Shown: piece after piece, positions 2,404 through 6,734 of the stretch
Layout: the number at the start of each line of letters is the position of its first letter
How positions within the stretch are numbered: position 1 is the first letter of the stretch
From: a phage
Assembly (NCBI GenBank): GCA_018175035.1
Contig: GCA_018175035.1_4099.4
Direction: 5' to 3' (one strand)
DNA: 24,260 nucleotides
Translations under genes and position numbers: made by a program
Notes under the pieces: generated by a model
Databases searched by the model: none
Seen by the model: only the letters and a program-made list of their open reading frames with translations
Told to the model about the DNA's origin: nothing

Positions 2404-3108
2404 TTATAAGCCATGTCTTTTCAAAAATCTAGCAAACACATTTTTGGAAGCACCATAACTTTCATATATACTAACTTTTTTCTCACCATTATTCAAACGT
2501 TGTTTGATATCTTCTATGTTATCTTCTAAACGTTTTACGTTTGCAAATTTCTTAGATGGTATATTATTTTTGGTTCTATAATTCAGTACTGAACCTGAAC
2601 TAATATTCATTATTTTAGCAATTTCAGTATCTAATAAACCTTGGTTAATATATTCTTTTACCTTTTCATAATCAACAGATGTTTCACCACCCTTTGTATT
2701 AGAAGGAGGCTTGACCATTTTTTGTGAACACTCAACACTACAATATTTTGTATATGATTTCACTTTAGTATGCCTACGGGTAAATTCCATATTACAACAA
2801 GCACATACAAATGAATCATATCGTGCTTGCACACCATTCTTATGTGTTTTATAACGATGTTCATCAACATGAAGTATTTGCAAATTTGACAAATCATCAT
2901 TTGTGAAATCATTATCAATGTGGTCTGCTTCTTCAGACTCAGTTAAATATCTACCTTCTTGTACTGCTAATAGATATCTGGCATATTGAGTACTGCTTCT
3001 ATCAGTTGGAGAATTATAAAGTATTACAGTTCTTCTACCTTCAGGGTTTATCTGTATATACCCATTCTCCCAATCATTACTGTATGGATATTCTAATTTT
3101 ATTTTCAT
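2404..3108 (-). CDS. HNH endonuclease with C-terminal helix-turn-helix-like region, free-standing, directly downstream of the intron-containing tRNA
   Basis: Protein contains EADHIDNDFTNDDLSNLQILHVDEHRYKTH (HNH motif), CxxC pairs, and a C-terminal LLDTEIAKIMNISSGSVLNYR segment; ATG start; 234 aa. Confidence 0.8.
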   Translation of the reverse strand: MKIKLEYPYSNDWENGYIQINPEGRRTVILYNSPTDRSSTQYARYLLAVQEGRYLTESEEADHIDNDFTNDDLSNLQILHVDEHRYKTHKNGVQARYDSFVCACCNMEFTRRHTKVKSYTKYCSVECSQKMVKPPSNTKGGETSVDYEKVKEYINQGLLDTEIAKIMNISSGSVLNYRTKNNIPSKKFANVKRLEDNIEDIKQRLNNGEKKVSIYESYGASKNVFARFLKRHGL

Positions 3109-3127: not shown

Positions 3128-3432
3128 TGAGCCATCTGTGAGTCGAACACAGTACCTAACGATTCGTATAATCTATAGTTTTCACTATAGTACGGACTAT
3201 ATCATCATCCCATAGGGATGCCGGACGCTAATGATGTATTACACAGTAAGATCGTACTGTACCATCTAGTCTCTGCACCTTCCCAATACGCTTATTGGGC
3301 TTGGCTCAGGATTGTCATCACCATTACGTGTTAAGATTTCCCTGAATTCATCCAGTTTTTCAATCACCATTACTGATGAAAGTCACCATTGTCGATGAGT
3401 CGTTTGCTCTAACCACCGTGAGCTAATGGCCC
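3128..3432 (-). tRNA. Intron-containing tRNA, anticodon CAT (Ile2-like, or elongator Met); exons 3395..3432 and 3128..3164; CCA not encoded
   Basis: 5' exon GGGCCAT-TA-GCTC-ACGGTGGTTA-GAGC-A-AACGA-CTCAT; 3' exon AA-TCGTT-AGGTA-CTGTG-TTCGACT-CACAG-ATGGCTC-A. The exons fold into a canonical 75-nt cloverleaf only after removing 230 nt from the anticodon loop. C4-G69 and C5-G68 match what I recall of the E. coli tRNA-Ile2 acceptor stem. Confidence 0.8.
3165..3394 (-). ncRNA. Group I self-splicing intron (230 nt, no ORF) in the tRNA anticodon loop
   Basis: 5' exon ends in U; intron ends in G; GUG near the intron 5' end can pair with the exon CAU (P1); core elements P-like AATTCAGGGAAA, Q-like AATCCTGAGCC, R-like CAGAGACTAGA, S-like GATATAGTCCG, with P7 pairing GACUA/UAGUC. 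Confidence 0.8.
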
Positions 3433-3676: not shown

Positions 3677-3682
3677 AAATTA

Positions 3683-3701
3683 ATTATATCAGTACTGAAA
3701 A

Positions 3702-3711
<10 letters not shown>
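3683..3711 (-). promoter_or_regulatory. sigma70-like promoter TGGACA-N17-TATAAT with TTCAGTACTGA in the spacer
   Basis: Minus strand: TGGACA ATAGTTTTCAGTACTGA TATAAT; the predicted start site falls at about the tRNA-Ser(GCT) 5' end (3676). Confidence 0.55.
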
Positions 3712-4091
<380 letters not shown>

Positions 4092-4170
4092 ATCACCAAC
4101 TTTAATTAAAAAAAAATGGATGGTGACGCTTTTAAACGTCGCTGTCAATTCAGCTTTATAACCACCCGTT

Positions 4171-4380
4171 TTAACTTACCTTTCGGCTACCTTGACGTGG
4201 GGCGTACAGGCTACTAAAAGCAACTTCTGTAAACATATTTCCACGCCTTACCCTTTTAAATAAAAGTCCATCCGGTTTTCCAGTTTGATGAAGGACTGTC
4301 ACCTCTAGTTTAAACCTGCTAGTCAAGTAATAATTGCCTATCGTCCAATTATCAAACCCGTCTAGGTTAACATTCACCAC
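4171..4380 (-). CDS. doubtful CDS (GTG start only), in a stretch that looks GC-richer than its surroundings
   Basis: Track ORF begins with GTG; AGGAAG lies immediately upstream with very short spacing; no in-frame ATG near the start; composition (R/G-rich) is unlike neighbouring proteins. Could instead be a non-coding transcript. Confidence 0.3.
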   Translation of the reverse strand: MVNVNLDGFDNWTIGNYYLTSRFKLEVTVLHQTGKPDGLLFKRVRRGNMFTEVAFSSLYAPRQGSRKVS

Positions 4381-4455
4381 TTCCTAGAGTACCAGAGATC
4401 TTGTTCTGGATTGCATCGACGTAACTTACACCATATACGTCTGATTGTGGAATTC

Positions 4456-4493
<38 letters not shown>

Positions 4494-4524
4494 ACAAATC
4501 TGGACGTTCATCTTTAAACATATT

Positions 4525-4550
4525 AATATCCTCAGTACTGAATTATTTAG

Positions 4551-4554
<4 letters not shown>
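4525..4554 (-). promoter_or_regulatory. degenerate copy of the TTGACT-AAATA(A/G)TTCAGTACTGA cassette (weak -10)
   Basis: Same -35 and spacer as the 4456 and 4936 copies, but the -10 is GGATAT/GATATT; overlaps the 3' end of CDS 4551..4904. Confidence 0.3.
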
Positions 4555-4964
<410 letters not shown>

Positions 4965-4968
4965 CTTT

Positions 4969-5137
<169 letters not shown>

Positions 5138-5141
<4 letters not shown>

Positions 5142-5298
5142 ATTCGTACCAGTAGTTCAATTAAGTACATTTCATATGCTGGATCGTTGATAAGTTTATC
5201 ATACATATGTGGCTCTGAAATGAATTCCCAATGATACTTTAGCCATCTACCGATACCCGAATATCTAAAATTAATGTCATTCATCCATTCTTCATGTG

Positions 5299-5302
<4 letters not shown>
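5138..5302 (-). CDS. small protein, MTHEEW family (member B, 54 aa)
   Basis: Manual translation: MTHEEWMNDINFRYSGIGRWLKYHWEFISEPHMYDKLINDPAYEMYLIELLVRI; ATGA overlap with member A; about 80% identical to A. Confidence 0.65.
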
Positions 5303-5463
<161 letters not shown>

Positions 5464-5951: not shown

Positions 5952-6134
5952 TTAGTTTTGATTATTTGACTTTCTAAATGCCAGTTCGCATATAAACCAG
6001 GGTTTTCTGGTATCCAAAACATATGACCTGAAAAGATTTTCATCTCTTAATATATCATAATGTACCTGACGAATGCCATTCCCAAAGCAGTCATGTTCTT
6101 TATGCTGTTTGGACATCCATTCTTCGTGTGTCAT
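5952..6134 (-). CDS. small protein, MTHEEW family (member D, 60 aa)
   Basis: Track ORF 5952..6152 starts at TTG; the ATG at 6134 gives MTHEEWMSKQHK...; paralogous to E and F (shared FG.GI..GHYDIL and WFI.ELA.R). Confidence 0.7.
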   Translation of the reverse strand: MTHEEWMSKQHKEHDCFGNGIRQVHYDILRDENLFRSYVLDTRKPWFICELAFRKSNNQN

Positions 6135-6135
6135 T

Positions 6136-6471
<336 letters not shown>

Positions 6472-6476
6472 TCTTA

Positions 6477-6653
6477 CTATTTTTTATCTCTAATAGCAAG
6501 CTCGTAGATGAACCAGTGGTTGGAATCTTCGTCCAAAACCAATGATTCGAACGTTTTTTTATCGTTCAAAATATCATAATGGCCTTGGCGTATACCAAAT
6601 CCAAAATGATCATGTTTATATTTTAGTGACTCTATCCATTCTTCATGTGTCAT
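6477..6653 (-). CDS. small protein, MTHEEW family (member E, 58 aa)
   Basis: Track ORF 6477..6671 starts at TTG; the ATG at 6653 gives MTHEEWIESLKYKHDHFGFGIRQGHYDIL...WFIYELAIRDKK. Confidence 0.7.
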   Translation of the reverse strand: MTHEEWIESLKYKHDHFGFGIRQGHYDILNDKKTFESLVLDEDSNHWFIYELAIRDKK

Positions 6654-6734
6654 TTTATGTATCCAGTTCAATTAAGTGTTTCATTTATTCTTCTGTAAAG
6701 AAAGCATTGCAATGGACAATGGAAAAGGTTATTA
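6654..6734 (-). pseudogene. decayed remnant of a paralogue of gene 6136..6351, upstream of MTHEEW member E
   Basis: About 60 nt upstream of member E matches the DNA upstream of member D (…TGCTTTCTTTACA.AAGAA…CACTTAATTG.ACTGGATACATAAAATGACACA), but here it carries an in-frame stop (NAFFTEE*) and a 9-codon stub MKHLIELDT*, versus …SAFFTKEEMQHLIVLDT* in the intact gene. Confidence 0.5.

Follow-up and report, generated by a model that had tools for sequence, protein, structure and literature searches.

The tRNA clusters of phages have long been known to carry stable RNAs that are not tRNAs and whose role is unexplained, first the species 1 and 2 RNAs of T4 and later GOLLD and ROOL. We know of no explanation to date for the function of the T4 species 1 and 2 RNAs, and GOLLD and ROOL occur mainly in other bacterial groups. 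The T4 RNAs (rnaC and rnaD), small and distinct from tRNAs, are encoded within the tRNA cluster of a virulent phage and on the strand of its tRNA genes (NC_000866 annotation). GOLLD and ROOL are elaborate, pseudoknotted noncoding RNAs (ncRNAs) of phages and prophages, of unexplained function and often near tRNA islands; ROOL is described as large, and many GOLLD members exceed 800 nt (PMC5737381, PMC12286853). In PA5oct, a jumbo phage related to 121Q and RaK2, ncRNA001 and ncRNA002 are highly transcribed, lack ORFs and are of unexplained function (PMC7318152). The ncRNA arrays of UG27 reverse transcriptases consist of repeated ~150-nt units with a pseudoknot, beside the reverse-transcriptase gene in prophages of other phyla (bioRxiv 10.64898/2026.09.22.753630). 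A catalogue of phage candidate structured RNAs, the candidate lists of which lay outside our comparison, describes candidates of 29–151 nt (PMC10690425); in the remaining literature searched, nothing was found on the RNAs described below in Asteriusvirus or RaK2 phages.

In a 24,260-nt stretch of phage DNA (the window; contig GCA_018175035.1_4099.4 of assembly GCA_018175035.1), we consider it likely that positions 4454–4109 of the minus strand hold two adjacent, independent ncRNA genes (modules A and B) of an Asteriusvirus-type jumbo coliphage, for which we propose a promoter, a 3′ end and mobility as cassettes. The features at the level of the whole locus are the following.

4525..4554, minus strand: predicted second (tandem) promoter of the same type as the next, 70 nt upstream, from the promoter scan and a motif copy
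4456..4484, minus strand: predicted early sigma-70-type phage promoter (TTGACT, 17-nt spacer, TAAAAT, TG-extended), directly upstream of module A
4265..4454, minus strand: module A, a structured RNA of ~190 nt with helices P1–P7 and three pseudoknots
4109..4252, minus strand: module B, a structured RNA of ~145 nt, from the RNAalifold consensus and covariance model R2

Like T4 species 1 and 2, module A is located inside a phage tRNA cluster on the tRNA strand, and in Bragavirus and Ishigurovirus phages it takes the equivalent tRNA–RNA–tRNA place to that of rnaC and rnaD. It is longer (~190 nt vs. 139 and 119 nt) and has no tRNA-like part, whereas T4 rnaC ends in a tRNA-like T arm. Neither the covariance model for module A (R1) nor that for module B (R2) matched the T4 tRNA region, and blastn in distant mode gave no T4 match; homology to rnaC or rnaD was rejected for want of a sequence or structure match. 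Compared with GOLLD and ROOL, the modules are short (190 and 145 nt), are carried by virulent phages of Enterobacterales and Aeromonas, and match no GOLLD or ROOL Rfam model. The PA5oct ncRNAs differ in lying outside tRNA arrays, and were rejected as homologues after R1, run over the PA5oct region with filters off, gave no match better than E = 1.2. UG27 arrays were likewise set aside, as nothing of that arrangement is present at the locus. The last elements of module A are two directly adjoining H-type pseudoknots (P5/PK2 and P6/PK3), a likeness to the pseudoknot strings of the tmRNA type, and the A+B unit, at ~345 nt, is near tmRNA length; it differs from tmRNA in having neither a tRNA-like domain nor a tag reading frame, and in that A and B are separable. 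The ARAGORN tmRNA search detected no tmRNA, and there was no Rfam tmRNA match.

A preliminary description, made from the sequence of the window, had proposed an Rfam scan to follow up a structured-RNA reading of the segment; the scan places neither module in any Rfam 15 family. Over the whole window, only tRNAs and one group I intron elsewhere exceeded the gathering threshold, and between 3680 and 4600 a search at E up to 10 returned only four chance-level matches and none to the tRNA model. In nine related loci only tRNAs were matched, and no family was found for module A, module B, RaK2 "module C," or the Kuravirus region. In modules A and B, both of the window and of RaK2, nothing was detected by ARAGORN in its standard mode or in its metazoan- and mammalian-mitochondrial modes; with a relaxed score, it made only one sub-threshold call with a nonsensical 2-nt anticodon.

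The same description had singled out positions 4150–4450 as richer in G+C, judged by eye, than the rest of the window. Calculation bears this out (41.5% vs. 32.4%): the G+C fraction of the segment is 0.415, the window mean is 0.324 (sd 0.033 over 301-nt windows; z = 2.8), and only 0.5% of equal-sized windows are as rich. The other two G+C-richest windows are both RNA genes, namely the group I intron at ~3132 and a tRNA-Arg/Ser pair at ~5359. A 69-codon ORF with a GTG start is present in the segment, as had been reported.

4171..4380, minus strand: 69-codon GTG ORF, a chance ORF across parts of modules A and B and not a gene

That the segment encodes a small basic protein from this ORF is very improbable and close to refuted already. 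Some GenBank records of relatives annotate hypothetical proteins over the module A/B stretch, and the product gave a marginal PHROG match (E = 0.008), albeit without a significant stretch; no Pfam family was matched. Outside Asteriusvirus, in which alone the frame is open, eight of the nine relatives examined carry stops in it, and it closes after 2–17 codons in RaK2, L028, L026, PM2, SdyM006, Mm5, and both L051 copies, in DNA that is still 80–92% identical. The ORF runs from the interior of module A to the interior of module B, two modules that are separate in other phages; its GTG "start codon" lies within the 3′ strand of pseudoknot PK1 (GUGG, 4377–4380); and the substitutions in module A track base-pairing, not codons. 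Because the frame is closed in relatives with high DNA identity and straddles separable modules, we read the ORF as a chance occurrence, and on these comparisons the interpretation of 4150–4450 as a small protein gene is rejected.

The structured-RNA alternative held and was extended, to two separate RNA genes rather than one, both with covariation-supported structures. Folding of the single sequence, which had been suggested as a check, is only modestly better than that of shuffles (z = −1.9), so that the support for structure comes from comparison with relatives, that is, from RNAalifold and from pair counts with homologues. Module A, which scores 212 bits against R1, is composed as follows.

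4447..4450, minus strand: PK1 5′ strand CCAC, at the 5′ end of module A, with its partner GUGG in the P3 loop
4415..4445, minus strand: P1 hairpin, AUC-A-GACGUA/UACGUC-GAU, with GGYG in the loop
4392..4409, minus strand: P2 hairpin, CCAG/CUGG, of differing length between lineages
4361..4388, minus strand: P3 hairpin, UCUAGG/CCUAGA, then conserved CGGG
4377..4380, minus strand: PK1 3′ strand GUGG, in the P3 loop
4329..4353, minus strand: P4 hairpin, GAUAAUUG/CAAUUAUU, with the invariant loop GACGAUA
4305..4328, minus strand: P5 (ACUUG/CAGGU) and PK2, in which loop CUAG (4319–4322) pairs with downstream CUAG (4305–4308)
4265..4303, minus strand: P6 (GGUGA/UCAUC) and PK3, in which loop AGUCC (4293–4297) pairs with 3′-terminal GGACU (4265–4269)
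4272–4283, minus strand: P7 hairpin, within the P6/PK3 region

Across 18 distinct sequences, the 56 pairs of these 11 helices are 90.6% paired, against 27–42% when partners are slid; 36 pairs show changes on both sides, and none of 500 shuffles reached any of the observed measures. Both-sided changes affect eight of the nine P1 pairs and all six of the P3 pairs, the latter being 99% paired. P2 is shorter in SdyM006 and the T5-like Proteus phage, and longer with a UUCG loop in L009. Pair counts support all three pseudoknots one by one: PK1 covaries as CCUCA/UGAGG in L072, GCAC/GUGC in Aeromonas phages and CUACA/UGUAG in L009; PK2 retains pairing in its variants CAAG/CUUG and CUGG/CCAG (PK2 is 100% and P5 98.9% paired); and in PK3, GUCC/GGAC is replaced by ACCC/GGGU in PM2 and by AUCC/GGAU in L009. 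The fold that emerges for module A would consist of seven helices locked by three pseudoknots, with the 5′ end held in the P3 loop (PK1) and the 3′ end in the P6 loop (PK3).

Several pairs of module A are invariantly or frequently G-U (for instance columns 160/170, UG in all 18 sequences), and these conserved wobbles, together with exchanges of G-U for A-U or G-C, fit only the minus-strand transcript. They bear on the exceedingly improbable reading that the conservation reflects a role of the DNA itself (as an origin, or as a packaging or recombination site). An invariant TTGAC inside module A, equal to the −35 core of the phage promoters, could be cited for a DNA site, but there is no −10 element at usable spacing from it, G-U conservation works only in the transcript, and the orientation is always that of the tRNA genes.

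Module B, with an R2 score of 160.6 bits, is 96.7% paired (33–48% when slid), counts that are inflated by the tRNA-overlapping fitted matches in alignment A7 and that draw on a small diversity of five full-length types. Its components are listed below.

4194..4247, minus strand: long irregular hairpin, with closing stem GGCGUGG/CCACGUC, then UACAG/CUGUA, then GUUGC/GUAGC
4178..4187, minus strand: short hairpin capped by a GAAA (GNRA) tetraloop, from RNAalifold
4118..4167, minus strand: Y-shaped 3′ domain (Y domain), a 7-bp stem GGGUGGU/ACCAUCC around the hairpins GCUG-AAUUGA-CAGC and GACGUU-UAAA-AGCGUC
4108..4116, minus strand: U9 tract, 1 nt past the closing stem of the Y domain, a putative terminator-like 3′ end

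The internal complementary stretches noticed earlier thus correspond to a stem, GGCGTGG (4247–4241) pairing with CCACGTC (4200–4194). Compensatory changes in the long hairpin occur in L026 (C-G to U-A) and in Kuravirus XT18, and a G-U pair of the GAAA hairpin in the window is G-C in RaK2, JNE01, and L026. A switch, in which GGCGUGG would have two mutually exclusive covarying partners, was considered and dropped in favor of the simpler single long hairpin given by RNAalifold. The short hairpin and T9 run noted at the end of the segment were found as described (hairpin 4140–4125, then ACCATCCA, then T9 at 4116–4108).

The Y domain and U9 (4167–4108) would probably serve as a leaky terminator and as a protector of the 3′ end. 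The resemblance to intrinsic terminators lies in the 7-bp, G+C-containing stem followed by U9, and in a RaK2 copy that closes a tRNA unit: in RaK2, the Y domain ends "module C" and also follows tRNA-Ser, where a U-rich tract and then the next promoter come after it; the closing stems in RaK2 are GGAUGAU/AUUAUCC and GGAUAGU/ACUAUCC. RaK2 thereby appears to reuse the Y domain as a terminator-like end module. Unlike in intrinsic terminators, the Y stem surrounds a three-way junction from which two conserved hairpins emerge (loop AAUUGA), and downstream genes or RNAs need read-through in several places. No terminator was called at the Y domain and U9 by the consensus scan, since what precedes the T run is the stem closing a branched structure rather than the small hairpin. 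The spacing between stem and U tract is 1 nt in the window and AAA in RaK2-like phages, and between RaK2 module C and module A, which lies downstream of it, no promoter-like sequence was seen by eye; both observations make a purely terminating role of the Y domain doubtful.

In the Y domain, as read from its sequence, the 7-bp stem is stacked on a hairpin in the manner of an acceptor/T minihelix, but without a T-loop motif. A role for the domain as a D-armless, tRNA-like punctuation mark was rejected: ARAGORN returned nothing, and the resemblance is loose.

Transcription of both modules would start from the conserved early promoter at 4484–4456, possibly also from that at 4554–4525. The proximal promoter, which had been proposed at 4456–4484 from the start, was recovered by the promoter scan (10 of 12 matches) and is one of three copies in the window of a 23-nt phage promoter motif, CTTGACTAAATAGTTCAGTACTG, with 0 expected by chance. 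The same promoter lies directly ahead of module B alone in JNE01 and ahead of the downstream gene in phAPEC6. Its predicted start site, 5–9 nt past the −10 hexamer (~4451–4447), falls within or just before the PK1 5′ strand, so that PK1 may be incomplete in transcripts from the proximal promoter, unless the upstream promoter and processing are used; transcripts from the promoter at 4525..4554 could be trimmed afterwards, so that their 5′ end coincides with the start of module A. The gene at 3702..4091, downstream of module B, has no promoter-like site of its own and would have to be transcribed by read-through of the Y domain and U9.

This arrangement raises the alternative that A and B form a cis-acting 5′ leader of the riboswitch or attenuator type, with the Y domain and U9 as the control point for read-through into 3702..4091. 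The Y domain and U tract stand directly before a promoterless gene in the window, JNE01, RaK2, and L026, in phAPEC6 the same promoter is fused directly to that gene, and GGCGUGG of module B could pair with either ACGCC or CCACGUC. We nevertheless regard a leader as unlikely: module A of T4-like and T5-like phages has a tRNA to either side and no ORF after it, the RaK2 Y domain also stands after tRNA-Ser and before a promoter, the downstream genes differ between phages rather than belonging to one family with the modules consistently before it, and the "alternative" module B pairing is a single long hairpin by RNAalifold.

The reading as two independent ncRNA genes draws further on their distribution. 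Module A was found in RaK2-like jumbo phages, in T4-like phages of Proteus, Morganella, Shigella, and Aeromonas, in T5-like Proteus phages, and in metagenomic contigs. All copies are within tRNA arrays, often directly between two tRNAs, and in the orientation of the tRNA genes; this context recurs in Straboviridae (Bragavirus and Ishigurovirus), Demerecviridae (Novosibvirus), and Alcyoneusvirus, as well as in metagenomic contigs L026, L072, and L051 (the last with two copies around one tRNA). Pattern scans of IMG/VR added only the copies in L009 and Aeromonas phages (L012 and L014 being chance matches), and of 60 stretches from the metagenome scan, only L023, L026, L028, L046, L051, and L072 were real. 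No module A or B match was present in 5,426 Escherichia coli genomes; among GTDB species representatives, the pattern scan produced nothing beyond chance matches, all rejected by R1; and R1 found nothing at E < 0.07 over ~470 kb of unrelated loci (including the GTDB pattern-matching stretches). A host origin or prophage copies were rejected on the E. coli and GTDB results. The module A family thus appears confined to the tRNA arrays of virulent T4-like, T5-like, and RaK2/121Q-like phages of Enterobacterales and Aeromonas.

The modules occur together or apart. Bragavirus phages have module A only, filling the gap from tRNA-Gly to tRNA-Asp; RaK2 has a 42-nt insert with a promoter between A and B; module B is behind its own promoter in RaK2, L028, and L026; and JNE01 has B without A, whereas phAPEC6 keeps a 38-nt stub of A. 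The same locus in sister phages thus holds A+B, B alone, or neither. Both modules are absent from some Asteriusviruses (phAPEC6, G17, and Sharanji) and are accordingly dispensable, at least on laboratory hosts. The A/B element is 96.7–98% identical in, for example, PBECO4, 121Q, fEgEco12, and CMSTMSU, against 90–92% for the whole 921-nt region, and module A is 85–91% identical between unrelated phage families, falling to ~75% with L009 and Aeromonas phages. The modules appear to behave as cassettes moving between phages. Of the earlier suggestion of a horizontally acquired small gene, the horizontal part survives in spirit, in the cassettes and their 85–91% identity across families, and the small gene does not. 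For modules A and B, the relatives compared establish conservation at the RNA level, the folded structures, modularity, and a context of tRNA arrays.

Mobility of this kind could also mark selfish or neutral passengers, carried by the homing endonucleases of tRNA regions and structured for stability, with no phage function. Variable presence at one locus, absence from some Asteriusviruses, near-identical copies across unrelated phage families, and endonuclease genes nearby in the window (HNH, 2404..3108), SdyM006 (segD-like), ZPAH1, and XT18 are in keeping with passengers. The chances of this being so seem low to us, as the A/B element evolves more slowly than the neighboring protein genes, the loops are strongly conserved, and the 36 pairs are kept by compensation down to ~75% identity (L009 and Aeromonas phages); loop conservation and compensated pairs point to selection on the folded module A RNA itself.

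The complexity of module A (three pseudoknots and many invariant unpaired nucleotides in ~190 nt) is typical of ribozymes and aptamers, and a ribozyme or tRNA-array processing element might, for example, cut at its 5′ boundary and so release the 3′ CCA end of the tRNA before it, or act on tRNA transcripts in some other way. Module A starts 0–5 nt past an encoded tRNA CCA in PM2, SdyM006, the T5-like Proteus phage, Aeromonas phages, L051, and L072, and its 5′ end forms part of the fold through PK1, as seen in ribozymes with 5′-edge cleavage. Such an element is nonetheless hardly probable: no Rfam model of a self-cleaving class (HDV-like, hammerhead, twister, pistol, hatchet, or glmS) was matched, the CCA–PK1 distance is variable (2–5 nt), the A/AAUU junction resembles an ordinary RNase E site, and in jumbo phages module A follows a promoter and not a tRNA, so that cleavage would be unneeded there.

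For modules A and B as independent ncRNA genes, we infer that the products are stable RNAs that act in trans and are linked to the tRNA array. Module A would be freed from tRNA-array or promoter transcripts by host tRNA-processing nucleases, with RNase P acting at the downstream tRNA, and RNase E and exonucleases at the AU-rich 5′ junction, and would then accumulate as a stable RNA protected from exonucleases. It may act in trans by binding a conserved component of host tRNA metabolism or translation, or a tRNA-targeting defence nuclease, a putative decoy or binding role suggested by the genomic context. Bolder, and in our estimation rather unlikely, is the proposal that module A represents a new class of catalytic or ligand/protein-binding RNA, a cassette traded within the tRNA arrays of virulent phages, either as a ribozyme acting on the array transcript or tRNAs or as a decoy against a host tRNA-targeting defence nuclease.

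Module A adds a compact new example to the non-tRNA RNAs of phage tRNA clusters, with three pseudoknots in ~190 nt, strong covariation, and clear boundaries. The analysis also corrects database annotation, given that several GenBank records call hypothetical proteins across the A/B stretch. Module A is found in phages of E. coli, Proteus, Klebsiella, and Aeromonas that are easily grown, and natural alleles of a single locus carry A+B, B only, or neither, which makes the role of these RNAs directly testable. RNA cassettes of this kind appear to move between unrelated phage families, and, if module A does represent a new catalytic or binding class, phage tRNA islands would hold counter-defence or processing devices made of RNA alone.

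The source phage is a jumbo coliphage of the Asteriusvirus type, with 99.2% identity to phage JP4 across window region 3680-4600 and 91-99% to SP27, slurp01, PBECO4, and 121Q. Genes are oriented on the minus strand, and the surroundings of the RNA element are tRNA-rich, with six tRNAs (ARAGORN) and a group I intron (Rfam). The preliminary description had judged 4150-4450 GC-richer by eye, and this observation is confirmed: G+C is 0.415 vs. 0.324 for the window (z = 2.8), a value reached by only 0.5% of 301-nt windows, and the remaining G+C peaks are RNA genes too (the intron near 3132 and a tRNA pair near 5359). The features listed for the segment are also present, namely a 69-codon GTG ORF (4171..4380, minus strand), the complementary stretches GGCGTGG and CCACGTC, a short hairpin (4140-4125) and T9 run (4116-4108), and a promoter (4484-4456), which was recovered by promoter scan.

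The segment had been read as either a small protein gene or a structured RNA. The element (4095-4460) retains 96.7-98% identity in phages with flanking genes at only ~90-92% over the same 921 nt. With the homologous GTG located in relatives and the frame read from there, the 69-codon frame is open only in Asteriusvirus; it runs into a stop after 16 codons (RaK2, metagenomic contig L028), 5 (metagenomic contig L026), 2 (PM2, SdyM006), 10 (Mm5), or 17 and 3 (the two copies of metagenomic contig L051). Because the frame is closed outside Asteriusvirus, its product has no Pfam family (the PHROG match is marginal only), and it straddles two modules found separately in other phages, we conclude that this is a chance ORF and not a small protein gene. 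The structured-RNA alternative is supported by compensatory changes in two folded modules, A (4265..4454, minus strand) and B (4109..4252, minus strand). Over these modules, several GenBank records place CDSs labelled 'hypothetical protein' (JP4_CDS0108, 121Q gene 129; in the JP4 locus, 4023-4565, and in records of other relatives), which look like mis-annotated RNA genes.

The element divides in two when the window is aligned with RaK2, PM2, and SdyM006. Module A, the 5' half, is 85-91% identical to a ~187-nt stretch of T4-like Bragavirus phages that takes up exactly the space from tRNA-Gly to tRNA-Asp; module B, the 3' half, is absent from these phages. In RaK2, a 42-nt insert carrying a TTGAAC...TATAAT promoter lies between A and B. 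The same locus reads promoter-B-gene in JNE01, and in phAPEC6 it has the promoter followed by 38 nt of A and the gene. Together, these arrangements show that A and B are separate cassettes.

The module A model was hand-built from compensatory changes and tested on a covariance-model alignment of 20 sequences (18 distinct).

Predicted elements of module A, 5' to 3' (minus strand)
PK1: 5' tail CCAC (4450-4447), pairing with GUGG in the P3 loop
P1, P2, P3, then a conserved CGGG
P4: invariant loop GACGAUA
P5 and PK2: P5 loop CUAG, pairing with CUAG downstream
P6 and PK3: P6 loop AGUCC, pairing with the 3'-terminal GGACU (4269-4265)
P7: small hairpin within the PK3 linker

Standard pairs make up 90.6% of the 56 pairs vs. 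27-42% with partners slid by 1-3 columns, both sides change in 36 of the 56, and none of 500 shuffles reached any of five measures. Every helix shows compensatory changes, each pseudoknot included; for PK1, the variants by lineage are CCAC/GUGG, GCAC/GUGC, CCUCA/UGAGG, and CUACA/UGUAG. RNAalifold independently recovered P1, P3, P5, and P6. The conserved G-U pairs are compatible only with a minus-strand transcript, and both ends are locked in pseudoknots (PK1, PK3) in the model.

Module B was folded with RNAalifold from five full-length versions.

Predicted elements of module B (minus strand)
4247-4194: long irregular hairpin
4187-4178: GAAA-capped hairpin
4167-4118: Y-shaped domain with a 7-bp closing stem, then U9

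Module B is 96.7% paired vs. 33-48% when slid, a figure inflated by model-fitted rows overlapping tRNAs; real diversity is small. Its covariance model recovered all module B copies, as well as the Y domain alone in three further RaK2-type contexts: ending another RNA ('module C') between tRNA-Gly and module A; in RaK2 after tRNA-Ser, with the next promoter directly downstream; and in L028 after another tRNA. The closing stem covaries (GGGUGGU/ACCAUCC, GGAUGAU/AUUAUCC, GGAUAGU/ACUAUCC). We interpret the Y domain as an end module that can be reused, resembles a terminator, and protects the 3' end; since several genes downstream have no promoter, it must be leaky.

Module C (2834-2995 of the RaK2 locus) is unannotated, matches no Rfam family, and has a 5' part that looks pseudoknotted (GUGUAC/GUACAC crossing GGGUUA/UAACCC); matches of 75-87% occur in Erwinia phages, T5-like Proteus and Klebsiella phages, T4-like coliphages, and even Cellulophaga phages. 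The minus strand of L026 has two additional non-coding stretches (~590-770 and ~1060-1130), promoter-driven or flanked by tRNAs, with long closing stems (UUUAUCAACGGUGAGUAACAUUG...CAAUGUUACUCACCAUUGAUAAA and GCGGCAU...AUGCCGC). Phages of this type seem to have a whole series of RNA genes, unannotated and interspersed with their tRNAs. Among phiEco32-like phages, Kuravirus XT18 has ~790 nt without annotated genes (2014-2802 of its locus), parts of which are conserved in >200 Kuravirus and Gamaleyavirus-type records; 2501-2560 resembles the module B long hairpin, with compensatory changes.

The promoter at 4484-4456 belongs to a 23-nt early-promoter motif set (CTTGACTAAATAGTTCAGTACTG, minus strand), with three copies in the window vs. 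0 expected by chance; the same motif lies upstream of RNA and tRNA units in JNE01, phAPEC6, RaK2, L026, and L028.

Early-promoter motif copies (minus strand)
4463-4485
4533-4555
4942-4964

Two of the copies, 70 nt apart, make up a tandem promoter that encloses a 9-codon mini-ORF, ATGTTTAAAGATGAACGTCCAGATTTGTAA (~4520-4491). The expected start site of the proximal promoter (~4451-4447) touches PK1. Module A is most conserved at 4321-4326, CUUGACUAGCAGG, where UUGAC is invariant across all lineages; this stretch has 9 nt in common with the -35 region in promoters of this phage, ACTTGACTA. A usable -10 element is missing downstream of it, so the likeness may be coincidence. Modules A and B are shown to be two RNA genes, structured, strand-specific, and cassette-like, and they lie downstream of a strong predicted early promoter.

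The neighboring tRNA region has further features.

Other features (minus strand)
3432-3395, 3394-3165, 3164-3128: 5' exon, intron, and 3' exon of a split tRNA-Met(CAT) gene
2404..3108: HNH endonuclease ORF
4977..5141, 5138..5302, 5299..5463, 5952..6152, 6477..6671: MTHEEWM ORF family

The anticodon loop of the tRNA-Met(CAT) gene (3128-3432) is interrupted by a 230-nt group I intron; ARAGORN does not call the gene, its exons, once joined, fold into a tRNA of 76 nt, and L026 has the same tRNA without intron. The HNH ORF lies immediately downstream. The small tandem MTHEEWM ORFs (54-66 codons; phrog_10970, function unknown) are interleaved with tRNA genes and share this motif, which opens the three tandem copies and occupies residues 7-13 of the other two.

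Module A was searched for by blastn, pattern scans, and its covariance model. It occurs in jumbo phages (Asteriusvirus, RaK2-like Alcyoneusvirus), Bragavirus (Proteus, Morganella, Shigella), T5-like Novosibvirus of Proteus (flanked by tRNA-Leu and tRNA-Ser), ~20 Aeromonas T4-like phages (3' of tRNA-Pro), an IMG/VR contig (L009), and metagenomic contigs L026, L028, L051 (two copies around one tRNA), and L072. Every copy lies inside a tRNA array, on the same strand as the tRNAs; module A is tied to such arrays across unrelated virulent phages. The covariance model gave no match at E < 0.07 in ~470 kb of unrelated loci, including all GTDB species-representative pattern matches, and blastn gave none in 5,426 complete E. 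coli genomes.

Rfam 15 scans returned no family for A, B, or relatives, and ARAGORN found no tRNA, armless tRNA, or tmRNA in A or B. T4 rnaC and rnaD have a position in T4 comparable to that of module A but are not homologous to A or B; identity with the PA5oct ncRNAs (not homologous) and with UG27 reverse-transcriptase arrays (other architecture, other context) was also rejected. Phage tRNA islands are already known to encode stable, structured RNAs whose function is unknown. T4 species 1/2 are of this kind, and so are GOLLD and ROOL (PMC5737381, PMC12286853). The literature searched, a set that leaves out one large catalogue of candidate short RNAs from phages, has no description of families A and B.

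Within arrays, nucleases maturing neighboring tRNAs would free module A: RNase P may cut at the downstream tRNA and an RNase E-type enzyme in the A/AAUU junction 3' of the upstream CCA, with exonuclease trimming then proceeding as far as PK3. Module A would accumulate as a stable RNA because both ends are buried in pseudoknots. Module A may instead act as a ribozyme that takes part in processing the array. The features of module A fit a trans-acting RNA with a host-component target, since its loops are strongly conserved across phages sharing only host range (Enterobacterales, Aeromonas), and since it is dispensable in some strains and has spread horizontally. The conserved host component that module A may bind in trans would belong to tRNA metabolism or to translation, or would be a defence nuclease directed at tRNA.
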